A stretch of DNA of 32,000 nt, taken from positions 570,001 to 602,000 of the forward strand of contig NZ_CP180230.1 in the NCBI RefSeq assembly GCF_047555085.1, given 5' to 3'. This document shows, piece after piece, positions 2,387 through 24,378 of this stretch. Positions within the stretch are counted from its first letter, which is position 1, and each line of letters begins with the position of its first letter. Both the position numbers and the translations under genes were made by a program. This DNA comes from Candidatus Saccharimonadota bacterium (GTDB lineage Archaea; Nanohalarchaeota; Nanosalinia; Nanosalinales; Nanosalinaceae). The notes below the pieces were generated by a model that did no database searches, had not been told where the DNA came from, and saw nothing but the letters and a program-made list of their open reading frames with translations.

Positions 2387-3781
2387 ATGGCTTTTACAGA
2401 TGAGATCTATGCATTAGTAGTCGACGATGATCAGGCCTCTGCGGAGACTGCCTCGATGATCATTGATGAGAAGTCTGACTACGTTACTGCAGAATATGTT
2501 ACATCGGGAGAGGCCGCTCTTGAAGTACTTGAATCCGAGAATATACATACTGTTGTATCCGACTACTCTATGCCAGGAATGGACGGCATGGAGCTTCTTG
2601 AGGAAGTAAATGAAAACTACGATCTTCCCTTCATCCTGTACACAGGAGAAGGATCAGAAGAGCTGGCTGTTCAGGCCTTGAAGTCAGGAGCAGAGGACTA
2701 CGTCACTAAAGGAGGAGCTGAAACGTTTGAAGTGCTTGCAAATCGTGTTGAAAATGCAGCTGTAAGTAAAAAAGCCGAGGATGAAGTGAACGTCTTTAAA
2801 GAAGGTGCAGAGAATGCAGGACATGCAATACAGGTTACAGATCCTGAAGGCAGAATAGTTTACGTCAATCCGGCCTTTGAAGATATAACAGGTTATGATG
2901 AATCCGAGGTTATAGGCGAGAACCCCTCGATACTCAGTTCTGGCGAACACGAAGACGAGTTCTATGAGCAGATGTGGACAACTATAGAAGCCGGAGAAGT
3001 GTGGCATGGAGAGATACTAAACGAAGATAGTGAGGGAGAACATTTCTGGGTGGATCAGACTATATCTCCGATTACTGATAACTCTGGAGATTTACAGTAC
3101 CTTATCGCCATAAATACAGATATTACAGATAAGAAAGAGAATAAGCACAGGCGTGAAGTCCTGAACACGATGCTCCGACACGACATCGCCAACAACCAGC
3201 AAGTCATCGCAGGAAACCTCACCATGCTTCAGGAGACAGAACTAGATGATAGACAGCAGGAGTACGTCAATAAGATACAGAGAAATGTAAATCAGAATAC
3301 AGACATCATGCACGGAATCAGAGGCCTTCTAAACGATAAAGACGGTGCTGAAAAGGAGATAGGCCTCAGAGACGTAGTTAATGAGGCACTTGAACAGAAC
3401 AAGACACAGGCAGACAGAAATAATGTAAGAATCAGATCAGATGTAGGAGACTCCTACAATGTAGTAGCAGGGCCTCTACTTGGACAGGCACTATCCAATC
3501 TCGTGGAGAACGCAGTAGTCCATCCTGAAAACGTGGAGAACGTGAGAATCGGCGCAGAGGCCTCTGAAGAAAATATAGAGATTTTCGTATCTGATGACGG
3601 TGATGGCGTGCCGGATGGCTTCAGTTTCGAGAAAGGTGCAAAAGGCGACGATTCCGATGGTACAGGTATCGGCACATGGCTCGTCAAGGAGATAGCAGAA
3701 GAATACGGCAACGGTATCGAAGTTGAGGAGTCTGAAGAAGGTGGCGCCAGATTCAGCATGAGGCTTCAGCAGGCCGAATAA
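2387..3781 (+). CDS. Hybrid sensor histidine kinase (N-terminal receiver, PAS, HisKA-like, HATPase_c)
   Basis: REC: VVDDD...SDYSMPGMDGMELLE...KSGAEDYVTK. PAS: VNPAFEDITGYDESEVIGENPSIL...WHGEILN. H-box: LRHDIANNQQVIAGNL. ATPase: NLVENAVVH, SDDGDGVP, GTGIGTWLV. Confidence 0.85.
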   Translation: MAFTDEIYALVVDDDQASAETASMIIDEKSDYVTAEYVTSGEAALEVLESENIHTVVSDYSMPGMDGMELLEEVNENYDLPFILYTGEGSEELAVQALKSGAEDYVTKGGAETFEVLANRVENAAVSKKAEDEVNVFKEGAENAGHAIQVTDPEGRIVYVNPAFEDITGYDESEVIGENPSILSSGEHEDEFYEQMWTTIEAGEVWHGEILNEDSEGEHFWVDQTISPITDNSGDLQYLIAINTDITDKKENKHRREVLNTMLRHDIANNQQVIAGNLTMLQETELDDRQQEYVNKIQRNVNQNTDIMHGIRGLLNDKDGAEKEIGLRDVVNEALEQNKTQADRNNVRIRSDVGDSYNVVAGPLLGQALSNLVENAVVHPENVENVRIGAEASEENIEIFVSDDGDGVPDGFSFEKGAKGDDSDGTGIGTWLVKEIAEEYGNGIEVEESEEGGARFSMRLQQAE

Positions 3782-8250: not shown

Positions 8251-9510
8251 TCAGGCCTCCGTGGATTTTTCAAACCAGGCCTTCAGAGTTACATCAACAC
8301 CGAGAGTCTTCTCCATGAATATCTCCAGTGTACGCAGCTCCTCCAGTCTGTCCTCCTCCAGATCCTCTAACTTTTCCTCCAGGCCATGAAGACGCTCCTG
8401 CTTGTCCTCAAGATCTCTTTCAAGGCCTTCAATCTTCTTCACAAGACTTTCACGCTTATCAGTTATATCCATTTCATCAAGCTCATCTTTCTTCGCCTCT
8501 ATCTCATCTTCGTACTCTCTTATCTCATTTTTATCGGCATCAAAGCCTTCAAAGTTCTCAACAGCATCTTCAAATTTTTCCAGCTGTCTATCATCAAGCA
8601 AGTCCTCTTCACGGATCTTTTCACAGGCCTTCTCCAGTTCAGAGGAAGGATTCTCTACAGAATCAAATTCTTTATCACGTATCCTCTTCAGAACACCAAG
8701 ATCGCCGTCGAAATCCGTACCAGAGTTCTCTACACTGTAGATAAGCTTTTTCAGGCCTCTATCAAGATTTGAAGCTCGACGGGAGATAGACTTCCGAACA
8801 TCGTCCCTCCTGGACTCGAGATAATTTATGCTGTCCTCAAGATCCTCCTTCCTATCCCAGGCCTCTGTACTCTCCAGCTCCTCCAGCTCATCTTTCCTAT
8901 CATCTAAATTCTCTTCTACATCTTCTATTTCATTTTTAACTGACTCAATTTTCTCTTCAGTTTTATCTATATCTTCAGAGAATCTTTCTATTCTTGATAG
9001 GGCCTTTTCAATCTGTTCAAGCTGTTTTATCGCCTGATACTCTTCTTTGATAAAATCTGACATCTCATCCCTGTGCTCAACGACAGCACTGAATTTTTCT
9101 GAGAGCACTCCAGAACTCTGCTCCACTCTCTTCATCACAGCACCTTCTTTGCGTGATACATCGTTTAACTCTTCCACAAAATCATCGAGATCTTCAAAAT
9201 GTTCTTCTAACTCTTCAGAGGCCTCAAAGTTGTCTATGAGCTTCTTGCGTGATTCATAGAAGTTTTGTGCTACATCTTCAACGGCCTGTATATCTGCCGC
9301 GTCCTCATAATCCGTTAGTTCATCCAGGCTTTCATCAAGCTCCTGAAGAAGATCATCTGTCCTTGAAACTAGCTGATCTGATCTTTCACGAGCTTTCTCG
9401 ATTTCCTGTTGCCTTCTTCTCCTGAAAGTTTTCTCTGCTTCGTCTAAATCTACTTCTAGTTCTTCTTCCTCCTTGGAAAAAATATTTTCCAGCTTGTCGA
9501 TCAGGCCCAT
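8251..9510 (-). CDS. Acidic coiled-coil protein (about 419 aa), function unknown
   Basis: Long Glu/Asp/Lys-rich heptad-like sequence. I prefer the ATG at 9510 (MGLIDKLENIF...) because the track's GTG at 9555 lies inside the TATA-like tttaaat element. Confidence 0.6.
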   Translation of the reverse strand: MGLIDKLENIFSKEEEELEVDLDEAEKTFRRRRQQEIEKARERSDQLVSRTDDLLQELDESLDELTDYEDAADIQAVEDVAQNFYESRKKLIDNFEASEELEEHFEDLDDFVEELNDVSRKEGAVMKRVEQSSGVLSEKFSAVVEHRDEMSDFIKEEYQAIKQLEQIEKALSRIERFSEDIDKTEEKIESVKNEIEDVEENLDDRKDELEELESTEAWDRKEDLEDSINYLESRRDDVRKSISRRASNLDRGLKKLIYSVENSGTDFDGDLGVLKRIRDKEFDSVENPSSELEKACEKIREEDLLDDRQLEKFEDAVENFEGFDADKNEIREYEDEIEAKKDELDEMDITDKRESLVKKIEGLERDLEDKQERLHGLEEKLEDLEEDRLEELRTLEIFMEKTLGVDVTLKAWFEKSTEA

Positions 9511-9561
9511 GACATCTCTGGATAATTTTTGCACTCCCAGATTTAAACAGGTCACCTAATA

Positions 9562-15838: not shown

Positions 15839-15950
15839 ACACTAAACAGGTATTCAGGAAATTGAAAAACAACGAGGTTACTCCAAAGAAACGGGACTTG
15901 TAGTAGACCTGTAATGCCAAAGTCCAAGCTATTTGTGAGGAAGAATTATG

Positions 15951-16022
15951 AGCCCCATCCGAGATTTGAACCCGGGATCTCGTCCTTACCAAGGACGCGC
16001 TCTACCGCTGAGCCAATGGGGC
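15951..16022 (-). tRNA. tRNA-Thr (anticodon GGU), no encoded CCA
   Basis: Hand-folded cloverleaf: acceptor GCCCCAT/ATGGGGC, D arm GCTC-AGCGGTA-GAGC, anticodon arm CGTCC-TTGGTAA-GGACG, T arm CCGGG-TTCAAAT-CTCGG. Confidence 0.9.
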
Positions 16023-16058
16023 CTGAGTTTCTTCTGTCTGAAGAATTACGATAGTGTG

Positions 16059-16087
16059 AGGCCTGGCCGGATATTTTTTCCAGGCCT
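16059..16087. other. Perfect 8-bp inverted repeat AGGCCTGG-N13-CCAGGCCT between rpl40e and tRNA-Thr; possible hairpin (terminator or processing signal)
   Basis: Read directly. The arms are built from two AGGCCT copies and the loop is ccggatatttttt. Confidence 0.3.
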
Positions 16088-16103
16088 CTGAATTAAAAAT
16101 TTT

Positions 16104-16265
16104 TTATCCTGCGAACTGGGAGTTCTTCTTTCTGAGGTCGCTGTATCCGCATTTTCTGCAGCTTGTCTTCTCTGGATTGTCTGTCTTGTTCTTTGCGTTG
16201 CAGCGTCTGCAGATGTATACGTTTTCGAATACTCTTTGTTCAGCTTCCTCAAATCTCTGTGCCAT
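16104..16265 (-). CDS. rpl40e: 50S ribosomal protein L40e (53 aa); missed by the ORF track
   Basis: My translation: MAQRFEEAEQRVFENVYICRRCNAKNKTDNPEKTSCRKCGYSDLRKKNSQFAG. It has the CxxC...CxxC zinc ribbon and an N-terminus typical of archaeal L40e. An AGAGGTG Shine-Dalgarno lies about 10 nt upstream. Confidence 0.85.
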   Translation of the reverse strand: MAQRFEEAEQRVFENVYICRRCNAKNKTDNPEKTSCRKCGYSDLRKKNSQFAG

Positions 16266-16320: not shown

Positions 16321-17673
16321 TTATCTGTCGTAGTTAGAATTTGGCAGATAAATATCGAATGATGGTGGTTTCAGGCCTGGCAGTATCTCGATGTCATGGC
16401 CGCTGGTATCTTTCCTGTCTCTCGAGTTGAATCCTTCAGGTACTGCACCCGGCTTTCTTGCTCCGAACACGTTGCCGTCTTTATCTACTACTTCATCTCC
16501 TCCGAGCTTGTCATATCTTACAAAGATTCTGGTAGGGCCTCCATCCTTGCTTACGTTGAACTCTCCTATTGTTTTAACGATTTTTGTAGGTGAAAGGAGG
16601 CCTTCGGCTTCAAGAGCGTTACATAGCTCTCCAACGATTTTTTCTGTAGTTTTCCTATTTTGATTTACATTATCGCTTGGCGAGTCATCTTGTTTTGGAT
16701 ATATGGTGGCAAGTTTTACAGCTGTCTCCTTTCCCTTGTTCTTCAGGCTTTCAGCGTTTCTTCCAAACTTGTTTTCACTTTCCATACCCTTAAGAACAGG
16801 CATAACTGCTTCTGCCACACGCAGAACTTCGTCCTCGTTTTCTGGATTGACAGCTACGTGAATCTTCCATCCCTGTGAAGCTGTTTTCCCGCTGTGCACC
16901 ATCCAGTTGAACCTTTTACCGCCGCTTTTGTGGACCCAGGCCCAGCGCCCCTTCCAGATGTCTGCACTGTTTTTACTCCAGTCAGGCTCAGTAGTAGGAT
17001 CTTTAGCCACTAACTGCCATGGCTCTGAAAGACTTGAACCTGTATCATCTGAACCATCTGAAGAATCATCAGAGGCCTCCGGAGCGTATTTTTTACTCAG
17101 AATGTTGCTGACTCTCTCCGCACGTTTATGGAGTTCTGTTTCAATTTCATCTTTTTCCAGACCGTGCTCATCCAAAATATCAGTTAAAATGGATTCAAGC
17201 TGCTGAACTTTCTTCCCTTTCCTGTCAAGCTCTTCTATCTTCCTCCCGAGCTCGTTAATCTGTTTCTCCTCCTTTCCTGCGATTTTTCCGAGGCCTGAGT
17301 CCTGAAGGCGTGAGGCGATACTTTCCAGCTCTCTGTCCTCTTCGGAGGCCTTGGATACATCCCGCTCAAGTTTATTTCTCAGATCTGATAGTCTTCTGGC
17401 ATTCCGGATGGAGGCCTCCAGCTGTTTCCCTATCTCCTGCTTTCTGGCGTTCTGTATCTCGGTGAGATAATCTTTCAGGACATCGGCAGAGCTATCAGTT
17501 AAAGAGATTTTAAGACCGTCTATACCGAAATCCACTGAGTCTGGATCTACTTCAAGGCCTTGCTTACTGATTATTACTCTTGCAAGTGAGAATCTTTCAG
17601 AGGCCTCTAAATCACGTTTAGTCGAAGTTATATCGCTTGCCAGGGCCTCCACTGCATCGCTGTAAGAAGTCAT
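16321..17673 (-). CDS. Cluster gene E: N-terminal coiled-coil adaptor plus a C-terminal domain with phospho-Ser/Thr-lyase-like (OspF/SpvC/HopA1/LanL-lyase) motifs
   Basis: 450 aa. The ATG immediately follows the stop of the JAMM gene (GGAGGA-TAA-ATG). Residues 1-190 align without gaps to the JAMM protein N-terminus (about 31% identity over residues 101-170). The C-terminal part has QGWK270-I-H272-V, NK302F and KLATIYP. The coding call is confident; the functional call is about 0.4. Confidence 0.8.
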   Translation of the reverse strand: MTSYSDAVEALASDITSTKRDLEASERFSLARVIISKQGLEVDPDSVDFGIDGLKISLTDSSADVLKDYLTEIQNARKQEIGKQLEASIRNARRLSDLRNKLERDVSKASEEDRELESIASRLQDSGLGKIAGKEEKQINELGRKIEELDRKGKKVQQLESILTDILDEHGLEKDEIETELHKRAERVSNILSKKYAPEASDDSSDGSDDTGSSLSEPWQLVAKDPTTEPDWSKNSADIWKGRWAWVHKSGGKRFNWMVHSGKTASQGWKIHVAVNPENEDEVLRVAEAVMPVLKGMESENKFGRNAESLKNKGKETAVKLATIYPKQDDSPSDNVNQNRKTTEKIVGELCNALEAEGLLSPTKIVKTIGEFNVSKDGGPTRIFVRYDKLGGDEVVDKDGNVFGARKPGAVPEGFNSRDRKDTSGHDIEILPGLKPPSFDIYLPNSNYDR

Positions 17674-18813
17674 TTATCCTCCACCACTGAACTCTGTTGG
17701 TTCTGGAAGTTTTTCGAAGCTGTATCCTGATGCTATGTTGCTCCATTCCTCGTCAAGTTCTTCACGCCATTCGCTGAACTCTCCGGAACTTTTTCTGTCG
17801 AAAGTGTTCAGTTCCGGATCTCTGGAGTTGCCTTTAAGCAGTACTTTTTTCGGAGTTACAAGCATTCCTATGTATCCTTCTCCCTGTTCCTTGAAATTTT
17901 CTATATCGCCTTCCGACCAGCTTTCAGCGTATTTTGGACCGTAACGATGTATTGTGCCAACCGAGTGCGTATGGAATTCTACAAGTCTGTACTTGGCATA
18001 ATTTTCTATCAGTTGGTTGGCTGCTCTCAGTCGGGCCTCATCCGGGGAAACTGACTGCTCATCCCCTACACCGGTCTTCAGAGTTTTCAGTACTGTCCAG
18101 TCTTTCCCTTCTTTCCTGCATATAAGGAGGCCTGTGATCTCCTCATTGTATGTATTAGCTGCGTGACGCAGATTCTGGAGGAACTCTTTATCGATGAATA
18201 TCTTTGTGTTTCCGCTTTTTCTTTCAGAGGCCTCTCCTGCATTTTCAAGTACAACGCCTATGACGTTCTTTCGATGCTTCAGTGATTCCACTATTCTGTG
18301 GCTTTCAGCGTAGCTTTCAAGATTTTCGTATTCGCTGAGCAATGTCTCAAGTTTTTCCTGCCTTTCCATAAGGCCTGAAAGCCTGTTCCCCATCTCCTGC
18401 ATCTGCTCTCCCTCATAATCGACTTCTGCAAGAAGATGTGCATCTTTTAATCGCCTTGCGATATTTTCAAGTTCTTTTCCTTCTCCTACAGCTTTCTCAA
18501 GCTCTGATACAAGCTGATCAGAAAGTGAGAAAAGCATGCTGTACTCGTTTTTCTTGTTTGGTGATGTATGCGTTGAATCCAGTTTTTTCGCCCATTCCAG
18601 ATTCTCGTCTATGGCCTGACTGTACTGCTGCAGAAGAGTTCTCCCGTCGTCGCTCAGATGTATCGTGCAGGCCTCGCAGATATTTTCCACTTCATCGATA
18701 TCGGAGTTATTTGAAAGCAGAAGGCCTAGAGCTTCTTCTCTGTCTCTTCCGTCGGGGACTTCCAGGCGTTCACTCAGTACGGCTTTGAACTGGCTGTAGT
18801 AGTTCTCACTCAT
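17674..18813 (-). CDS. Cluster gene D: coiled-coil adaptor plus a JAMM/MPN+ (JAB) metalloprotease domain
   Basis: NEEITGLL (Glu225/226) ... EFH282TH284S...S301EGD304 gives E...HxH...SxxD. The ATG at 18813 (or GTG at 18816) overlaps the stop of gene C (ATGAGTGA) and is preceded by a GGGGGAG Shine-Dalgarno-like run. Confidence 0.8.
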   Translation of the reverse strand: MSENYYSQFKAVLSERLEVPDGRDREEALGLLLSNNSDIDEVENICEACTIHLSDDGRTLLQQYSQAIDENLEWAKKLDSTHTSPNKKNEYSMLFSLSDQLVSELEKAVGEGKELENIARRLKDAHLLAEVDYEGEQMQEMGNRLSGLMERQEKLETLLSEYENLESYAESHRIVESLKHRKNVIGVVLENAGEASERKSGNTKIFIDKEFLQNLRHAANTYNEEITGLLICRKEGKDWTVLKTLKTGVGDEQSVSPDEARLRAANQLIENYAKYRLVEFHTHSVGTIHRYGPKYAESWSEGDIENFKEQGEGYIGMLVTPKKVLLKGNSRDPELNTFDRKSSGEFSEWREELDEEWSNIASGYSFEKLPEPTEFSGGG

Positions 18814-19630
18814 CACTCTCCCCCAGTAGATTGATTATACGTCTTATCCTGTCTATGTCTTCTTCCAGTTCATCTATTTCCTCGTCCATCAGCTCATTGA
18901 TCTCGTCTTCAGCATCTGATAGAATTCTTATAACTTGTTCAAGTTCTCTGGCAGTTGTCTCGGCTTCTTCATCGGCCTCTTCTTCCTCGCCTTCATCTAT
19001 TTCATCTTCTTCACGGGCCTCTTCTTCCTCGATCTGCTCTTCTTCGGTTTCTGCCCTGTCCAGTGCTTCTTTAGTGGCCTCTATACCTTCCACCATCTGT
19101 CCGACACCGCTTGAAGTGGCCTTAACTGATGCTCCGGTAATGTAAGCTGATCCTGCTATAGTTCCTCCGACTCCTCCGATAAGTATGAACAGTGTTCCTG
19201 CAAGGATCATGAATGTGAATGCGAGAAGAATCATTGACTGCCAGCCTCTTATCAGGCCTGTGAATCCTGCTGATCCAACTACGGTAAGCGTTATCAGTAG
19301 TGTAAGTACCGCAAGTACGTTTCTGCTATCATCGTCTGTAAGGCCTACAGCATCCTGGAACGGCGTGTCCATGTTGCTGTCTTCGAGGTTCTTATCGAGG
19401 TACTGGAGCGCTATCTTGAAGATTACGTATGCGGATACCCACATAACGGAGAATGTTGCGAGTATGCCAAGCACGTGGTATGGTTCCGAGACTCTTATTC
19501 CGAATACCTGTGATAGAAGTTCTGGAAGAGATGCAGATCCATACCCGTAGTATCCTCCGTTAGTTATCTGTGCAGATGTGGATGGTATGAAGGCTGTAAA
19601 CAGTAAAACCAGTTTTCTCCAGCGCCCCAT
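18806..19630 (-). CDS. Cluster gene C: signal peptide, 3 TM helices, then an acidic coiled-coil tail (short paralogue of gene A)
   Basis: The N-terminal 160 aa are collinear with gene A: signal peptide ending TSAQITNGG, helices LGILATFSVMWVSAYVIF, VLAVLTLLITLTVVG and the identical GLIRGWQSMILLAFTFMI. The tail then carries ARELEQVIRIL. Confidence 0.8.
   Translation of the reverse strand: MGRWRKLVLLFTAFIPSTSAQITNGGYYGYGSASLPELLSQVFGIRVSEPYHVLGILATFSVMWVSAYVIFKIALQYLDKNLEDSNMDTPFQDAVGLTDDDSRNVLAVLTLLITLTVVGSAGFTGLIRGWQSMILLAFTFMILAGTLFILIGGVGGTIAGSAYITGASVKATSSGVGQMVEGIEATKEALDRAETEEEQIEEEEAREEDEIDEGEEEEADEEAETTARELEQVIRILSDAEDEINELMDEEIDELEEDIDRIRRIINLLGESDE
19206..19258. repeat. 53-nt block nearly identical (2 mismatches) to 22904-22956; encodes GLIRGWQSMILLAFTFMI in gene C
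   Basis: Compared directly: atcatgaatgtgaatgcgagaagaatcattgactgccagcctcttatcaggcc versus atcatgaacgtgaatgcgagaaggatcattgactgccagcctcttatcaggcc. Confidence 0.85.
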
Positions 19631-19653
19631 GCCGTAAAATTATCGGTTCGTGG

Positions 19654-19661
19654 TTATAAGA
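19654..19661 (-). promoter_or_regulatory. TATA-like box (minus strand tcttataa) at -24..-31 of the gene C ATG
   Basis: Read directly. A T-run (ttcttcttttttg on the minus strand) lies further upstream, just downstream of the gene B stop. This suggests C-D-E is its own transcription unit. Confidence 0.4.
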
Positions 19662-19724
19662 GTTTACAAGAAAACGGCGTTTTCAATCAAAAAAGAAGAA
19701 TAAGAAGGGAGAAGTCAGGATGGC

Positions 19725-21110
19725 TCAGGGCATCCTGGCCATGCTTTCTATCTCTTCCCTGAACTCCTCGACAGCATCGTATTCTTCGCCAGTAGCATCT
19801 TCTACGTGAGACTGGACTCTCTCCGTCAGCGAATGGATGCCATAATCGTCCTCTGCAGTGATATCATCAAGGCCAAGGTGATCGTACAGACCTACAACTT
19901 CATCAAGACGTGTACCAACACGTACATCTTCCTCATCAAGCCTGTCTGTTATTGCTTCAGCTGCCTGTGCGTAATCCGTTACTGCATCCTCCAGGTAGTC
20001 GATTCTTGTCAAAGCACGCTTTGCAACTGCATTGGCTGCTCTGCTGATATCCTGTACTACGCCCTGCTGGTCCTGTGAAAGCTCCGGTGAGCCTGGAAGT
20101 GTTTCTGGAACAGATTTAGCTTCATAAACGTCGCGCATGTTCCCAAGGCTGGATAGTGTGATGAAAAGATCCTCTATGCTCTCTGCCTGATCCTCAACAT
20201 ACTCTATCACATCGGTAGAGAACTCAACATGAACCTCTTCAAGTTCATCCATCCTGTCCGTTCTCTCTGAGACAAGATCCTGTTTCTCATCCTTGAGTGT
20301 AGAACGCTGTTCCTGAGCATCAGATCTAACTTCCTGTTTCTCCTCTTCAAGCTCTTCACGGCGCTCCTCATACTCGGATTCAGCCTCTTCCACAGTAGTT
20401 CTGAAGCTTCCCGAGATATCATCCCATTCCTGCTGCCACATATCATTCGTCTCATCGTAGGACGACTCATCAAGATCAGAAGTGGACATGCCAGAAACCT
20501 GAGACTTCAGATCTCCAACTTCTTCCTCCTTCTCCCGTTCAGCCTGCTCAATACGCTCATCTCTTCTTTCCTCAGCCTGCTCAATCTCCTGCTCAATCTC
20601 ATCAACACGCTCCCGCTCCCTGTCGGAAACATTGCTTATCAGGCCTGTAAACTGCTGGACCTGTGATGAGAGAGTATCAACAGCAGCAGAGTTGGACTGG
20701 AGATATTCCATCAAGCTCTGATCCTCATCAGCAAACTCGATGCGCTCTCCATCCTCCTCAAGATACTTTAAATCAACCAGCTCCCACTCATCATCTACTT
20801 CTGCAAGACCTGTCTCACGGGCATCCGCAAGGAACCTGTTAACAGGCTGATTCTCATCACCAGCTCTGCTTTCAAGCCTGCTCTTCAGATCACGGAACTG
20901 TATTTCTCTCTGTCTCTGTTTCCCAAGCGCATTGCCGTACTCCGACTCAGCACTCTGGGCCTCTCTAGCAAGTTCATCTTCATCAAGAACATTTGCATTA
21001 GCATGAGTTCCAGCACGTCTGTTCGCAGGATTTCCATTAACCTCAGCCTCTCTCCCTTCAAGTTCAAAACCAAATTCTTCCTCTACAGTCTCCTCTCCAT
21101 TATCATCCAT
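19725..21110 (-). CDS. Cluster gene B: highly acidic soluble coiled-coil protein (461 aa), unknown function
   Basis: Long ORF with no TM helix and extended Glu/Asp/Arg-rich helical repeats. A GGTGA Shine-Dalgarno lies 7 nt upstream of the ATG. Confidence 0.7.
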   Translation of the reverse strand: MDDNGEETVEEEFGFELEGREAEVNGNPANRRAGTHANANVLDEDELAREAQSAESEYGNALGKQRQREIQFRDLKSRLESRAGDENQPVNRFLADARETGLAEVDDEWELVDLKYLEEDGERIEFADEDQSLMEYLQSNSAAVDTLSSQVQQFTGLISNVSDRERERVDEIEQEIEQAEERRDERIEQAEREKEEEVGDLKSQVSGMSTSDLDESSYDETNDMWQQEWDDISGSFRTTVEEAESEYEERREELEEEKQEVRSDAQEQRSTLKDEKQDLVSERTDRMDELEEVHVEFSTDVIEYVEDQAESIEDLFITLSSLGNMRDVYEAKSVPETLPGSPELSQDQQGVVQDISRAANAVAKRALTRIDYLEDAVTDYAQAAEAITDRLDEEDVRVGTRLDEVVGLYDHLGLDDITAEDDYGIHSLTERVQSHVEDATGEEYDAVEEFREEIESMARMP

Positions 21111-21231
21111 ATTGTAATCACCAGGGTATAGTAAAGCACGTGAGAATTATATACTTAATCCTGGCCTTAGATTTGAACAGAATCATTTAAGACCACTGAG
21201 AAAAATTATGATCGCTGCTAGGACGTCTTCA

Positions 21232-23313
21232 TTAACTCTCAAACGTGTAAAAAACTTCTTCAATTCTCTCTCTTTCAATATTCCTGAAAACGTCTCCTGT
21301 TGCCGGGCAGAAGCACACGCCAATACTCTCCGTGTCAACGAACACACAAGGAAAAACACCGCCGCCTACACGATAAAAACCGAGGCTGACAAACGCATCA
21401 TCAATGAAATCCCTGACAGGCCTCCATGCACCAACTTTGGAGCTGTTAAGCTCATCTACAAGCCTGTGATCATATATAGGCCTGAAGTTATGGATAAGGA
21501 ATCCAAGATAAACCGCATTCACAAGATCAGAATCAAAACGCAGAGAATCAAACGCTTCGGACAGCAAAATATTCTTCCTGTCCCTATCAGGAATTTTTGA
21601 AGAATTTATATCGCTATTTATGGACTCGAAGACATTAACAAGCTCTTCACCAACCTTGCTTTTCCTGCTTATGTCTCTGGACTTGATAAAATTCCTTATG
21701 TCTCCTTCAAATCTTTTGATAAGGCCTCTGGATTTCTTATCAAATTCAAAAGCTTTTTTGCCAGTATGGCTTCCTGCCGACATACCGATATCTACTTTCA
21801 AAGTTGTATTGCTTTTTCCGGAAGGAAAAATAGTTAGTCCAGGCCTTATCGAAGCTTCAGCTTCTGCTTCGCTGTCAAAACTTACAAATTTGGCTGTACT
21901 GATGCCAGTACTGCTTGAGTCGATGATCTGTTCTGTCAGTATTTTTCTTACATCTATTGCGTTTCTTAGGGCGTCAAGGCCTCCTATATGGGATTCAAGC
22001 TCCTTGATGTGCTCCTCTAAATCTTTCAGTCTTTCGTCCATATCTCTTATGCGCTCAAGTTCTTTCTTCAGCTCCTTCAGTTGATTTATCTCGTACTCGT
22101 ATTCTTCTGCAATTTTTCTCCTGTTTCTGGATGACTCCAGATGATCTATTAGCTCTTGAAGATCTTTTTCCTCATCCACAGCATGGCCTATCTCGGCCTC
22201 AAGGCCTTCGATTAAATCCTGTAACTCGCTGTAAATCCTGTTGTTGGCCTCCAAGTCAGATACCTGATTTTTCAATCTTTCAAGTTCATTCAGGTACTGC
22301 TCCAGCAAGTCCAGTTCCTCTTCCGTGACCGGCAAAGCTCCTGCAGAATTTATTATATCTCTGAAACGTGCTTCAGCTTCACCTGAGGCCTCGTTAAGTG
22401 AAAGAAGCTCTTCCAGTTCATCCCTACTTATTTCAAGTCTCTCTACTACATTCCTGAGATTTTCGAATCCTTCATGTCCCTCCTGTACTCCAAGAGCTCT
22501 CAGTAACTCTTTCAAGGCCTGCAAATCATTTTTCAGATTTTCAAGCTCTGTGCTGATACTTCCCTCTATCCTGTTCTCTATATCCTCGATCAACTGTATG
22601 ACTCTTTCAAGCCTGTTAGCTATATCCTCTAACTCTCTTTCTACTTCACTCGCTCCACGACTGCCTGTATCTGTTGAACTGTCAGTATCGCCTTCCTCTT
22701 TTCTTCGTGCATCATCCTCTTCCCTGTCGATGCTTTCCTCAAGTTCCTCGACTTCATCCTCTTCCCCTCTTATCTTCTCAACCTCTTCTGAGGCCTCTTT
22801 CACTCCTCTGGCAACTGATTTAGCGGATTTACCGAGTAGATATCCGCCGCCTCCCAGTATAAAGCCTGTGCCTCCTATAAGTACGAACATCAGGCCTGCT
22901 ATAATCATGAACGTGAATGCGAGAAGGATCATTGACTGCCAGCCTCTTATCAGGCCGTAAAACGCTCCTGTGCCGATGACGCTGAGAGTTACAAGTAGAG
23001 TGAGTACCGCCAGAATATTCCTGTCCTCGCTCCTGGCAATTCCAAATGCGTCAGCAAATCCGTTGCGTCCGTCAAGGCCTTCATCCAGCTTCCCTATAGC
23101 TATCTTGAAGATTAAATACGCGGACAGCCACATCAGGCCGAAAGTAGCAAGCAGTCCTATCAGTTCTGTAGGATTTCCGATGTTGATCCCCAGTAGTTCT
23201 GATAGAAGAGCAGGTATAGACGCTGTGCTTCCGAAGCCTCCTCCGGTTATCTGCGCAGAGGCCTCAGACAAAAGAAGCGAAAACACAAGTACTAGCTGGG
23301 AAAGCCTCTTCAT
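21232..23313 (-). CDS. Cluster gene A: signal peptide, 3 TM helices, about 280 aa of coiled coil, and an unknown C-terminal globular domain of about 230 aa
   Basis: 693 aa. The signal peptide ends EASAQITGGG and the TM helices are paralogous to gene C. RELEDIANRL sits at aa 226-235. The C-terminal domain (STGISTAKFVSF...FYRVGGGVFPCVFVDTESIGVCFCPATGD...) matches nothing I recognise. Confidence 0.8.
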   Translation of the reverse strand: MKRLSQLVLVFSLLLSEASAQITGGGFGSTASIPALLSELLGINIGNPTELIGLLATFGLMWLSAYLIFKIAIGKLDEGLDGRNGFADAFGIARSEDRNILAVLTLLVTLSVIGTGAFYGLIRGWQSMILLAFTFMIIAGLMFVLIGGTGFILGGGGYLLGKSAKSVARGVKEASEEVEKIRGEEDEVEELEESIDREEDDARRKEEGDTDSSTDTGSRGASEVERELEDIANRLERVIQLIEDIENRIEGSISTELENLKNDLQALKELLRALGVQEGHEGFENLRNVVERLEISRDELEELLSLNEASGEAEARFRDIINSAGALPVTEEELDLLEQYLNELERLKNQVSDLEANNRIYSELQDLIEGLEAEIGHAVDEEKDLQELIDHLESSRNRRKIAEEYEYEINQLKELKKELERIRDMDERLKDLEEHIKELESHIGGLDALRNAIDVRKILTEQIIDSSSTGISTAKFVSFDSEAEAEASIRPGLTIFPSGKSNTTLKVDIGMSAGSHTGKKAFEFDKKSRGLIKRFEGDIRNFIKSRDISRKSKVGEELVNVFESINSDINSSKIPDRDRKNILLSEAFDSLRFDSDLVNAVYLGFLIHNFRPIYDHRLVDELNSSKVGAWRPVRDFIDDAFVSLGFYRVGGGVFPCVFVDTESIGVCFCPATGDVFRNIERERIEEVFYTFES
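22904..22956. repeat. Partner of the 53-nt conserved block at 19206-19258 (gene A copy)
   Basis: See 19206-19258. The flanking paralogous sequence is much more diverged at the nucleotide level. Confidence 0.85.
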
Positions 23314-23336: not shown

Positions 23337-23344
23337 AATATAAA
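23337..23344 (-). promoter_or_regulatory. TATA-like box (minus strand tttatatt) at -24..-31 of the gene A ATG
   Basis: Read directly, in the 242-bp divergent region shared with the AbrB-like gene. Confidence 0.4.
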
Positions 23345-23555: not shown

Positions 23556-23804
23556 GTGAAGGCGTTCACGGAAAGCTTCTCAACAACTCTTGACTCAAAA
23601 GGCCGTGTAACTTTACCTGCCAGTGTCAGAAGGAAGCTAGGCCTCGAGAAAGGAGACAAAGTGAAGATCTCCGCAAAAAATCCCCGCATCCGGAGTAGAG
23701 AGGCCTCATGTATTGAGGAGGCTCTGAGCTTTCTGCAGGAATTTGATTCCGTGGAAACTTTCTCCTTCAACGGGGAAAGAGTTGAGGTGGTTCTAAGTGG
23801 ATAG
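23556..23804 (+). CDS. AbrB/SpoVT/MazE-family DNA-binding protein (antitoxin-like)
   Basis: DSKGRVTLPASVRRKLGLEKGDKVKI is a typical swapped-hairpin AbrB motif. GTG start, with no in-frame ATG available upstream. Confidence 0.75.
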   Translation: MKAFTESFSTTLDSKGRVTLPASVRRKLGLEKGDKVKISAKNPRIRSREASCIEEALSFLQEFDSVETFSFNGERVEVVLSG

Positions 23805-24378
23805 CCTCGAGTTCACGGATCTAAGTTACGAACCCGGTGAGTACTCTCTAAGCGACGAAAAGATGGAATCAGCTGTGATAGGTATGTACCAGAGAGTGTT
23901 CAATAACTCTCCTTACGGGGAGAACTTTGACTACGAACTGGCTGAAGATATTGTCCAGGGAATCCGGGGAAAGGATACGGAAGGCCTTCTTGCTGTTCAG
24001 GACGGTATGCCTGTCGGATTTGCATGGGGAGAAGTTCTGGAGCCGGGGGATAGGGAAATTTTTCCGGATGAAATCCCTGGAGAATTCTTCGATGGAAGTA
24101 GTTACTACTTCGCTGAGCTCGGTGTACTACCGGATTACCGTGATCAGGGCCTCGGTAAAGAGCTAAAGAGGCGGGAGCTGGAGAAAGTTAAAAACCGTGA
24201 AGATATCGATAAAGGCCTGATGCGGACATCTGTGGAGGAGAACGATAAGAAGCTGGGTCTTGACAGCGATCTGGGATTCGAGGCCTTGGAGCCTGATGGA
24301 GAACCTGTAACAGAGGAGGTTGAATCCGTGGGAGTTGAAGGAAGTGATCTCCGTGGCTACTTCTGGAGGCCTGTATGA
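23797..24378 (+). CDS. GNAT-family N-acetyltransferase; start uncertain (GTG at 23797 overlapping the AbrB stop, or ATG at 23863)
   Basis: AELGVLPDYRDQGLGKELKRREL matches the acetyl-CoA-binding motif A (R/Q-x-x-G-x-G/A). Confidence 0.7.
   Translation: MDSLEFTDLSYEPGEYSLSDEKMESAVIGMYQRVFNNSPYGENFDYELAEDIVQGIRGKDTEGLLAVQDGMPVGFAWGEVLEPGDREIFPDEIPGEFFDGSSYYFAELGVLPDYRDQGLGKELKRRELEKVKNREDIDKGLMRTSVEENDKKLGLDSDLGFEALEPDGEPVTEEVESVGVEGSDLRGYFWRPV

Follow-up and report, generated by a model that had tools for sequence, protein, structure and literature searches.

A nanohaloarchaeal gene cluster encoding a candidate membrane-docked platform for interchangeable modification-removing enzymes

Comparison with described systems

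JAMM domains cleave ubiquitin-like isopeptide conjugates, and the lyase domains of the OspF/SpvC/HopAI1 and LanL types eliminate phosphate from phosphoserine and phosphothreonine. Polymorphic toxin and effector families, such as the LXG proteins of type VII secretion, carry a conserved helical N-terminal domain with variable C-terminal heads, and the JAMM deubiquitinase AMSH/STAMBP is recruited to membrane-bound helical-hairpin proteins (ESCRT-III). The window analyzed here, a stretch of 32,000 nucleotides taken as a whole, contains a cluster of five minus-strand genes (A to E; positions 16321-23313) that can be set against each of these systems.

Like the archaeal JAMM desampylases (PfJAMM1, HvJAMM1) and minimal prokaryotic JAMM/MPN+ proteins (Cap3, Rpn11 homologues), the product of gene D has the MPN fold as its best match and a complete E…HxH…SxxD motif, but it differs in having a 190-residue helical adaptor ahead of the head, a longer spacer between HxH and SxxD (16 residues), and a Pfam score below the cut-off. 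No SAMP/ThiS-type tag or E1 gene was found in the genome, so the substrate of D would not be the usual cognate conjugate. The product of gene E can be set beside the OspF/SpvC/HopAI1 lyases and the LanKC/LanL lyase domain of class III/IV lanthipeptide synthetases through a RamC_N match, the GWKIH and K..TIYP motifs that align to LanKC, and structural similarity to LanL/LanKC lyase clusters at TM 0.58; however, E is archaeal rather than bacterial, is fused to a putative membrane-docking adaptor, and gives way to a PPP-like phosphatase head in sister genomes. An assignment of E as a lanthipeptide synthetase was rejected, as it comes without a kinase domain, LanC cyclase, or precursor peptide.

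From general knowledge of LXG-type families, the cluster resembles them in retaining an N-terminal module (N-module) of about 190 residues while exchanging heads, in its narrow and patchy distribution, and in the small helical partners that bind the N-module, here by prediction. In contrast to those families, the N-module matches neither LXG nor a further Pfam family by sequence, the heads remove modifications instead of acting as nucleases or pore-formers, the cluster contains neither immunity genes nor a secretion ATPase, and natural fusions bind heads to a membrane anchor. D is also analogous to AMSH/STAMBP in that a helical recruitment domain precedes its JAMM head and its predicted partner is helical and membrane-associated, but the cluster has no MIT domain or Snf7/ESCRT-III match, and the hairpin resemblance is non-specific, with structural hairpins matching at a non-discriminating Z of about 10. 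The lineage of this organism is not known to employ ESCRT. A reading made from sequence only had recognized no described counterpart, and none emerged from Pfam, NCBIfam, PADLOC, PHROGs, the PDB, or the searched literature; the apparent anchoring of interchangeable mark erasers under the membrane is new to these sources.

Gene layout, adaptor module, and enzyme heads

The five consecutive minus-strand ORFs of the sequence-only reading were all present at their full lengths and positions (Table 1), with D counting 380 aa from GTG or 379 aa from the ATG at 18813. The proposed translational coupling of C, D, and E was also borne out: the ATG start of D overlaps the stop of C in GATGAGTGA, the TAA stop of D abuts the ATG start of E in GGTGGAGGATAAATG, and equally tight junctions recur in relatives (G003, G004, and metagenome contigs). 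Each of A, B, and C has its own TATA-like box, and the tight operon comprises C-D-E only; a T-run follows the stop of B, and TTATAA likely serves as the promoter of C-D-E. The conserved, coupled core is C-D-E, which also occurs as a three-gene form in G003 and on contig L067, with A and B as accessories.

Table 1. Positions of genes, domains, and promoter elements in the window
Feature	Coordinates	Strand	Description or basis
Gene A, 693 aa	21232..23313	-	ORF and translation: leader, predicted 3-TM membrane module, acidic helical stalk with C-like tail, D/E-type N-module, unrecognized head
A residues 1-165, membrane module	22819..23313	-	cleavable-looking leader (…ASA/QITGGG) and three hydrophobic segments
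A residues 315-469	21907..22371	-	internal copy of the D/E N-terminal adaptor module, directly after the C-like tail
A residues 470-693, head of unrecognized fold	21235..21906	-	conserved in 7 sequences
Gene B, 461 aa	19725..21110	-	soluble, 29% Asp+Glu, helical; accessory
Gene C, 274 aa	18806..19630	-	membrane module and cytoplasmic acidic helical tail (predicted); proposed docking anchor
C residues 171-274, tail predicted to bind D N-module	18809..19120	-	complex prediction
Gene D, 379/380 aa	17674..18816	-	N-module and JAMM/MPN+ head
D residues 1-195, adaptor N-module	18232..18816	-	small N-terminal part and long helical hairpin 86-171
D residues 204-362, JAMM/MPN+ metalloprotease domain	17731..18207	-	fold and motif
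Gene E, 450 aa	16321..17673	-	N-module and phospho-Ser/Thr lyase head
E residues 215-450, OspF/SpvC/LanL-type lyase domain (Pfam RamC_N)	16324..17031	-	RamC_N match, LanKC alignment, Atlas
TATA-like box TTTATATT	23337..23344	-	candidate, 24 nt upstream of A start
TATA-like TTATAA	19654..19659	-	candidate, 24 nt upstream of C start

The acidic coiled coils previously ascribed to the cluster were retained in part. B proved soluble and hyper-acidic, with 29% Asp+Glu against 18% in long ORFs of the same genome and no hydrophobic segment, whereas the acidity of A, C, D, and E equals the halophile proteome average, and the label of coiled coil rests on long helices in structure models. B, which had no family match in our searches and no homology to the N-module or C tail, is an accessory acidic helical protein; it has orthologues in G004 (52% identity) and on L064-L066, and is missing from the three-gene form.

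D and E share their N-module at 28% identity over 125 aa (E 1e-7), as had been supposed, and an alignment of 11 sequences left L62, Y65, A109, E112, E115, L116, I119, L123, D125, and R182 invariant. The fold and motif of D, a family of 15 proteins in 5.8 billion, confirmed that it ends in a JAMM/MPN+ domain. Its AlphaFold model (pLDDT 82) matched PfJAMM1 at Z 12.9 (VIA; rmsd 2.6 Å, 121 aligned), and Foldseek placed the head on PfJAMM1 5ld9 at TM 0.77 by target (E 6e-5), with 49 JAMM/MPN matches at E<=1e-3 and STAMBP and AMSH among the structural matches. The residues E226, H282xH284, and S301xxD304 were invariant in 13 JAMM heads, although the Prok-JAB score (15.7 bits) fell below the cut-off of 25 and a profile search of the head against the PDB found no JAMM by sequence.

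The assignment of the E head, in a family of 6 proteins, as an OspF/LanL-type phospho-Ser/Thr lyase domain was likewise confirmed. It scored 38.7 bits against RamC_N (cut-off 27), and profile A6 aligned GWKIH and K..TIYP with LanKC 8sao (E 1.1e-3), the alignment by sequence covering only the first half of the lyase domain. In the Atlas, OspF/VRP3 clusters were nearest by features (0.90), and LanL/LanKC lyase clusters matched by structure at up to TM 0.58 over about 170 residues; the KxH/K motifs were invariant in 6 sequences. In relatives, the E slot holds either a lyase or a PPP-like phosphatase on near-identical scaffolds: Metallophos heads with GDLLDRG, GNHD, and HGG motifs scored above cut-off in G004 (27.8 bits), L064 (25.4), and L067 (27.5), and the G004 E' protein is 67% identical over residues 1-414 to G060a, one ending as a phosphatase and the other as a lyase. 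Of the family members examined, only one has something other than JAMM in its D slot. The notion of a conserved N-module with variable heads was thus upheld with more head types than had been proposed, comprising JAMM, lyase, PPP-like phosphatase, an HExxH head, and two unrecognized heads.

Membrane anchors and docking of the enzymes

A and C are paralogous, being 44% identical over 254 aa (E 4e-59), and hydropathy revealed in each the anticipated N-terminal leader, ending ASA/Q, followed by three hydrophobic segments, which in A lie at about 50-73, 98-122, and 124-160. The membrane-module alignments (A2/A3) kept Q21, Y66, Q126, and G147-G148 invariant. This module is rare, with 55 cluster representatives among 1.84 billion, and that of A had no match in Pfam or the PDB and none to TrbC. 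Basic residues cluster directly after TM3 in both proteins, and prediction from hydropathy and charge alone, the module models having pLDDT <50, supports a topology for C with a short outside N-terminus, three TM segments, and an inside C-terminus. The C tail motif TAEELEQVI…ELExDxExxRxxxxLLGExD was kept in 8 of 9 sequences. Anchor and adaptor are both confined to one nanohaloarchaeal lineage, and neither belongs to a Pfam family.

The globular C-terminal domain of about 230 aa earlier noted in A corresponds to the head at 470-693, but the adaptor copy preceding it had been overlooked. Profile A7 of this copy matched G000:C1:591907-592428 at E 1.9e-14, and hhalign of A7 against A4 gave a probability of 98.4% (E 1e-14, 151 columns), compared with 0.9% against B and 0.6% against P0007 as controls. 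By these profiles, A joins a membrane anchor like that of C to an adaptor module of the D/E type and an unrecognized head. The head conserves GxHT, FEF, and N..Y.GFL..NF motifs but no Cys in the 7 sequences, and it had no usable Atlas match; the model of A was poor (pLDDT 54.6). Among 5.8 billion proteins, the A family has 6 members, each about 700 aa long, with orthologues in G004 and on contigs L064-L066.

The predicted complex of the C tail with the D N-module, built from helical, highly acidic chains with small custom alignments, reached an ipSAE of 0.79 (0.78-0.80 in three runs) against 0.07 for the best control; of 80 solved complexes, 58 attained the mark applied, as did 2 of 110 mismatched pairs. 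The interface involves C residues 179-271 and D residues 65-182, with at least 73% of contacts common to the runs and a partner pLDDT of at least 85, and this prediction supports docking of the cytoplasmic tail of C on the adaptor hairpin of D. The A/C module co-occurs with D/E-type adaptors in G003, G004, and metagenome contigs, and in G015, from another genus, a single ORF joins anchor, N-module core, and lyase. The membrane-docked scaffold envisaged in the sequence-only reading therefore gains three independent supports, namely the C/D/E coupling, the two natural fusions (A and G015), and the control-passing complex prediction. Its suggestion of delivery fared worse: D and E have no hydrophobic segment, leader, or signal peptide by hydropathy, the cluster contains no translocase, and the heads fused in cis to a membrane anchor argue that the enzymes stay tethered at the cytoplasmic face.

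Possible roles of the cluster

We tentatively favor, at somewhat short of even chances, a membrane-anchored docking platform for interchangeable modification-removing enzymes at the cytoplasmic face. C would insert in the cell membrane via its cleavable-looking leader and three TM segments, and its roughly 100-residue acidic helical tail would pack in the cytoplasm onto the hairpin of the roughly 190-residue N-module of D and E. Such docking would bring two enzymes just under the membrane: in D, a metallo-isopeptidase of the JAMM/MPN+ type, and in E, a phosphate remover that is a phospho-Ser/Thr beta-elimination lyase here and a PPP-like phosphatase in sister genomes. A would present the whole arrangement in one polypeptide of anchor, stalk, N-module, and a third head of unrecognized type. 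The enzymes may be active and may have a part in symbiosis, and a role in host interaction or defense is conceivable.

The cluster carries no ubiquitin-like protein, E1/E2, kinase, or ATPase, as previously read, and a Pfam-based search of the genome (1.05 Mb, one contig, 95.9% complete) yielded nothing above cut-off for ThiF and no match for ThiS. D and E were the sole JAB and RamC_N matches, and the only kinase-like genes were ABC1 and a small RIO-type protein. A putative tag-removing enzyme thus occurs in a tiny, salt-loving symbiotic archaeon in whose genome no tag-making gene was recognized. Because no ThiF-type E1, ThiS/MoaD-type tag, or Hanks-type kinase was found in the genome, the substrates are most likely not the symbiont's own products but probably host-derived proteins met at the membrane or the contact site with the haloarchaeal host; an unrecognized tag or a non-tag JAMM substrate is also compatible with this result. 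Against this step, the RIO and ABC1 kinases could supply endogenous phospho-substrates, and the data show no route for cytoplasmically tethered enzymes to host proteins.

In a rival reading, D, E, and their variable-head relatives would leave the platform and be translocated into the haloarchaeal host to strip SAMP conjugates and phospho-marks, with the N-module as a secretion or docking signal like that of polymorphic effectors. Swappable heads on a conserved N-module, the narrow lineage-specific distribution, the missing tag/E1 system, and the proximity of E by features to the injected effectors OspF/SpvC all fit this idea, and according to a published proposal (PMC10266531), nanohaloarchaea use VirB4-like giant proteins to inject 'yet unknown effectors'. 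We nevertheless regard injection as unlikely, as the enzymes lack signal peptides, the cluster encodes no translocase or ATPase, and the covalent anchoring in A and G015 fits tethering unless the head is cleaved off. A T2SSE ATPase lies near the third paralogue, but its gene belongs to the core of the whole phylum (61 of 70 genomes), and its occurrence does not follow that of the module (14 of 70).

Endogenous regulation, in which the tethered enzymes would act on the symbiont's own membrane-proximal proteins (e.g., transporters, contact apparatus), resetting RIO/ABC1-type phosphorylation while the JAMM domain processed proteins as a peptidase instead of removing tags, also seems doubtful. The predicted cytoplasmic placement of tail and enzymes, the ABC1 and RIO-type kinase genes, the ordinary GC content, and a chromosomal position fixed by the adjoining HisRS and L40e genes across the genus agree with it; however, a canonical JAMM substrate would require the tag/E1 system that was not found, head swapping and presence in only some members of one family are unexpected for a housekeeping regulator, and a lyase, whose action is irreversible, would suit reversible self-regulation poorly.

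It is distinctly improbable that the cluster is a conflict or defense system in which variable heads act as effectors or counter-measures on proteins of viruses or competing symbionts at the membrane. The variable heads, the patchy distribution, the mostly viral Atlas neighbors of both heads (Prok-JAB 74% viruses, RamC_N 67% viruses), and an adjoining MazE-like/GNAT pair are in its favor, but PADLOC gave only weak matches, all within coiled-coil regions of A, B, or C, with none for D or E; the cluster has no sensor, nuclease, or NTPase; and the locus, which has no integrase or att-like repeats, is syntenic rather than island-like.

A purely structural role, in which membrane and coiled-coil proteins with inactive heads would assemble into a cytoskeletal, division, or envelope scaffold, is highly improbable despite the long helical acidic proteins that dominate A, B, and C and the resemblance of the N-module hairpin to many structural hairpins, because most genera of the family lack the cluster, which is thus not a core structure, the JAMM and lyase catalytic residues are invariant, and the exchange between lyase and phosphatase in the E slot suggests that selection acts on the chemistry.

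Modular organization of the five-gene cluster

Genes A to E were recovered as five consecutive minus-strand open reading frames (ORFs), as the sequence-only reading had described them. A and C proved to be paralogues (44% identity over 254 aa, E 4e-59) that share a leader ending in ASA|Q, three hydrophobic segments, and an acidic helical region. B is soluble and hyper-acidic (29% Asp+Glu), and D and E carry a common N-terminal module (pairwise E-value 1e-7) with an invariant core, A..E..EL..I...L.D, in an 11-sequence alignment. The coupling proposed for C, D, and E was also borne out, with the C stop overlapping the D start (ATGAGTGA) and the D stop abutting the E start (TAAATG). A TATA-like box lies 24-40 nt upstream of each of A, B, and C, and a T-run follows B; together with the tight C/D/E junctions, these signals indicate that the tight operon is C-D-E, with A and B apparently forming units of their own. 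A bacterial sigma-70 promoter scan was uninformative, as expected for an archaeon.

The globular C-terminal domain that had been left unassigned in A (residues 470-693) is preceded by a D/E-type adaptor module, which had been overlooked. The N-module profile matched A residues 295-469 (E 1.9e-14), and hhalign placed residues 315-469 with the D/E adaptor at 98.4% probability over 151 columns; the same profile reached 0.9% with B and 0.6% with P0007, the third paralogue, so coiled-coil noise does not explain the match. Just ahead of this module, A carries the tail motif conserved at the end of C (…LLxxLG), so that A is a C-like anchor, comprising membrane module and acidic tail, joined to a D/E-like protein. 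Its head (residues 470-693) is a third domain type beside those of D and E. A protease reading of this head (Atlas matches with TM <0.33 and weak C39-peptidase-like rows) was dropped because its Cys residues are not conserved. The structural model of A was poor (pLDDT 54.6, with the membrane part <50).

Neither the anchor nor the adaptor matched any family in Pfam, NCBIfam, or PDB. Residues 1-200 of D and E gave no Pfam family at E<=1 except coiled-coil noise, and the membrane-module profile had no match in PDB. Several candidate identities were rejected: a VirB2/TrbC-type pilin for the membrane module (PF04956 without a match in the source genome at E<=1), an ESCRT-III/prefoldin-like fold for the N-module hairpin (Z ~10, non-specific for helical proteins), SMC/Rad50 (NCBIfam matches far under the cut-offs, coiled-coil noise), and the PADLOC and PHROGs matches LmuB, JetC, and tape measure, which were coiled-coil noise only.

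Complex prediction for the C tail (residues 165-274) and the D N-module (residues 1-200) returned an ipSAE of 0.79 against 0.07 for the best control; 58 of 80 solved complexes attained this mark, as did 2 of 110 mismatched pairs. At least 73% of contacts were common to the runs, partner pLDDT was at least 85, and the predicted interface lies between the conserved C tail and the D hairpin. These models support binding of the C tail to the D N-module. Besides A, a second natural fusion is present in a relative from another genus (G015), where the membrane module (hhalign 92.8%) shares one ORF with an acidic stalk, the N-module core (77.9%), and a RamC_N lyase (31.4 bits). Another apparent fusion, a 555-aa protein of genome G002 with N-module, lyase, and JAMM, was rejected, as its ORF crosses a 20-N run (locus L013, 9232-9251); the scaffold to which L013 and L016 belong (G002:C7) contains 20- or 50-N runs every 1-3 kb, which makes ORFs crossing them unreliable.

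Coordinates of the cluster genes and other features discussed in the text (G000, source genome; other G handles, genomes of relatives; L, loci or metagenomic contigs; P, single proteins)
Feature	Location	Strand	Remarks
Gene A	window 21232-23313	-	
Gene B	window 19725-21110	-	
Gene C	window 18806-19630	-	
Gene D	window 17674-18816	-	
Gene E	window 16321-17673	-	
Ribosomal protein L40e	window 16046-16252	-	zinc-ribbon CxxC…CxxC; directly downstream of E
tRNA-Thr(GGU)	window 15950-16022	-	directly downstream of E
MazE/AbrB-like protein, 82 aa	window 23556-23804	+	Pfam 37.1 bits
GNAT acetyltransferase gene	window 23797-24378	+	start overlapped 8 nt by MazE/AbrB-like ORF
434-aa protein	window 8251-9555	-	32% Asp+Glu; all-helical (predicted); adjoins P-type ATPase gene
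Hybrid receiver-PAS-HisKA-HATPase histidine kinase	window 2387-3781	+	in a 1 Mb symbiont genome
Third paralogue P0007, 537 aa	L001:7286-8899 = G000:C1:83285-84898		separate locus
T2SSE-family ATPase, 754 aa	L001:14361-16625		61/70 genomes of the phylum
Stand-alone RamC_N proteins	L069:1192-2145; also G061, G045, G065, G051, G048, G049, G046		

Catalytic heads of D and E

Both the fold and the full motif of a JAMM/MPN+ metalloprotease, as had been suggested for D, were found in its head. The model, built from a 13-sequence alignment, reached a pLDDT of 82 (~90 over the head, residues 205-362), and Foldseek matched the head at probability 1.0 to Rpn11, CSN5, PfJAMM1, and Cap3. PfJAMM1 came first (TM 0.77 by target), followed by Rpn11, CSN5, Cap3, and BubCD, and superposition on 5ld9 (VIA) gave Z 12.9 and an rmsd of 2.6 A over 121 aligned residues. 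Residues E226, H282, H284, S301, and D304 are invariant in 13/13 D-type heads, with a spacer of 16 residues between HxH and SxxD, longer than usual. D nevertheless fell below the Pfam Prok-JAB/JAB cut-off (15.7 bits vs 25; 17 bits in the genome search), and its head profile matched no JAMM chain in PDB; by sequence, D is a divergent JAMM member. The D position in relatives' clusters (D slot) is occupied by JAMM in all full-length family members except one, which has an HExxH head. The metagenomic protein P0021 bears an HExxH (HELMH) zincin-like head on the same N-module, and a locus of another relative (L051:1-1434, G005:C89) encodes a ~280-aa head of yet another type on it.

The phospho-Ser/Thr lyase head proposed for E was likewise upheld, with Pfam RamC_N scoring 38.7 bits against a cut-off of 27 (39.8 in the genome search) in a match limited to profile positions 12-101 of 191. 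K270-I-H272 and K320 (VKLATIYP), to which catalytic roles were assigned from the literature (PMC4159009), are invariant in 6/6 sequences, a TRIFVRY motif is conserved, and in the head profile GWKIH and K..TIYP align to LanKC 8sao (E 1.1e-3). By features, the nearest entries in the ESM Atlas were OspF/SpvC clusters (0.90, 208 shared features); by structure, they were LanL/LanKC lyase clusters (TM 0.58 over ~170 residues, from an Atlas model with a mean pLDDT of 0.48). E gave no Pkinase or LANC_like match, and the NCBIfam LanL and LanKC models scored 28 and 27 bits (cut-offs 650 and 575) over the lyase part only. Lacking the central Ser/Thr kinase domain and the C-terminal LanC-like cyclase of LanKC/LanL synthetases, E is a stand-alone lyase domain rather than a lanthipeptide synthetase.

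In the E slot, the lyase head is found in the source genome, five metagenomic proteins, and two proteins of genome G060, whereas a PPP-like metallophosphoesterase head takes its place in genomes G004 and G003 and in two metagenomic lineages. Metallophos scores (cut-off 21.5) were 27.8 bits for G004, 25.4 and 27.5 for the contigs L064 and L067, and 18.8 for G003. These heads contain GDLLDRG, GNHD, VHGG, and GHTG, with motif I reading SDVES instead of the consensus DxH. Over the first 414 residues, the G004 protein and one of the G060 proteins (G060a) share 67% identity; beyond that point, the former continues as a phosphatase and the latter as a lyase. The fold in the E slot varies but the predicted chemistry does not, and such alternation on one scaffold offers a clean evolutionary argument about the job of this slot.

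A 2014 survey reported lyases of the SpvC and LanL types from bacteria alone (PMC4159009). Stand-alone RamC_N lyase-domain proteins of ~310-340 aa, without kinase or cyclase, occur in 8 genera of one nanohaloarchaeal family (12/70 genomes), where these domains are widespread outside any lanthipeptide context. The G062 copy has K-V-R in place of KxH.

Distribution and candidate roles of the cluster

Our comparison set for the phylum comprised 70 genomes (0.5-1.7 Mb). Strong-scoring C, D, and E were confined to the genus of the source genome (4-5/6 genomes) and a handful of metagenomic contigs, and among 5.8 billion proteins the families of D, A, and E numbered 15, 6, and 6, respectively. The five-gene order recurs in G004 and contigs L064-L066, and the C-D-E configuration alone is found in G003 and L067/L068, both sharing one chromosomal place between HisRS and L40e. 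A mobile-element origin was rejected on the basis of ordinary GC, the conserved chromosomal position, and the lack of an integrase or att-like direct repeats. The cluster consists of known catalytic domains and two undescribed modules in one narrow lineage. It is unlike the SAMP/UbaA, Bil, Bub, and CBASS Cap2-Cap3 operons, with no E1/E2-like enzyme, tag protein, or CD-NTase beside the JAMM gene. With LXG-type and polymorphic toxins it has the architectural logic alone in common, as the N-module matched no known trafficking domain in Pfam. No described counterpart of the whole arrangement was found, and our literature search returned no paper joining DPANN with OspF or nanohaloarchaea with desampylase.

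We favor a mechanism in which anchor and adaptor form a membrane-anchored docking platform that would keep both heads, JAMM and phosphate-removing, tethered on the cytoplasmic side. The sequence-only reading had envisaged a membrane-docked scaffold delivering its enzymes; the scaffold and both heads were supported, but delivery was not, since the cis fusions, the absence of signal peptides from D and E, and the lack of a translocase favor heads that are tethered rather than injected. Injected effectors, which would share the head-swapping logic of polymorphic toxins, are for these reasons doubtful; the cluster contains neither a secretion ATPase nor a small immunity-like gene.

D is the sole JAB match and E the sole RamC_N match in the source genome, in which a whole-genome search found no ThiF match above cut-off and no ThiS match, and the only Pkinase matches, one ABC1-type protein and one small RIO-type protein, were sub-threshold; ThiF, ThiS, and Pkinase matches were all detected in the control genome, Haloferax volcanii. 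The enzymes therefore lack obvious endogenous substrates, which makes regulation of the symbiont's own proteins by the tethered heads rather unlikely, and for the same reason we infer that D and E would act on host-derived proteins. A defensive role for D and E, neither of which had a match in PADLOC, is very unlikely, and a purely structural one is hardly credible beside the invariant catalytic residues of both heads.

Nanohaloarchaea depend on haloarchaeal hosts. Their effectors have been postulated and still await identification (PMC10266531). C-D-E and A might, as a speculative and rather improbable reading, constitute a DPANN-specific host-manipulation apparatus, with the membrane module placed where the symbiont contacts its host or at the cytoplasmic bridge, and the stalk presenting swappable enzymes for the irreversible removal of SAMP-type tags and phosphates from proteins of the host. 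Tethered heads might meet such proteins through uptake or through a cytoplasmic bridge. The cluster provides concrete effector candidates, namely a JAMM enzyme in a genome without a detectable tag-conjugation system and a predicted phosphate-eliminating or -hydrolysing enzyme in a genome nearly devoid of protein kinases; both enzymes seem to be carried by a membrane anchor specific to the lineage. If host manipulation were true, a nanohaloarchaeon would for the first time have effector-like enzymes assigned to it, and the OspF-plus-deubiquitinase strategy of bacterial pathogens would gain its first counterpart in archaea; if it is wrong, the cluster would still define two new protein modules, anchor and adaptor, and a predicted docking principle.

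Genomic surroundings and the wider membrane-module family

The source genome is a single contig of 1,046,238 bp (45.8% GC, estimated completeness 95.9%) with an acidic proteome throughout (median pI 4.6; 18% Asp+Glu in long ORFs). The cluster's neighbors in the window, among them HisRS, a YGR210-type GTPase, ribosomal protein L40e, and tRNA-Thr, are housekeeping genes of archaeal type, and L40e likewise comes after the E slot in G004 and L064. Together with the small genome sizes in the phylum, these features are consistent with a nanohaloarchaeal source. The MazE/AbrB-like and GNAT genes look like an antitoxin/GNAT-toxin-type pair, which is kept beside the C-D-E operon in G003 and contig L067. 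The 434-aa acidic protein is without a family match and has a G004 orthologue (37% identity); the histidine kinase gene is followed by two small proteins, also without a family match.

The membrane module was detected in 14/70 genomes from about six genera of one family, with 55 cluster representatives among 1.84 billion proteins, and is older than the C-D-E cluster. In the Atlas it matched unnamed DPANN clusters only, at a score of 0.81 that is a lead and no more. The locus of the third paralogue (L001:6700-16625) is conserved in at least 4 genera and encodes small multi-TM proteins (188, 206, and 162 aa), a 754-aa acidic helical protein, FlaC-like coiled-coil proteins, and a T2SSE-type ATPase. 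A functional link between module and ATPase was rejected, as the latter occurs in 61/70 genomes vs 14/70 for the module, so that the link is positional at most. The ATPase has matches in G009, G016, G028, G039, G048, G049, G055, G058, G063, G067, and other genomes; in ~12 genomes the match is split (1-496, 491-754) within open frames of 1125-2013 aa, a pattern suggestive of an intein-like insertion.
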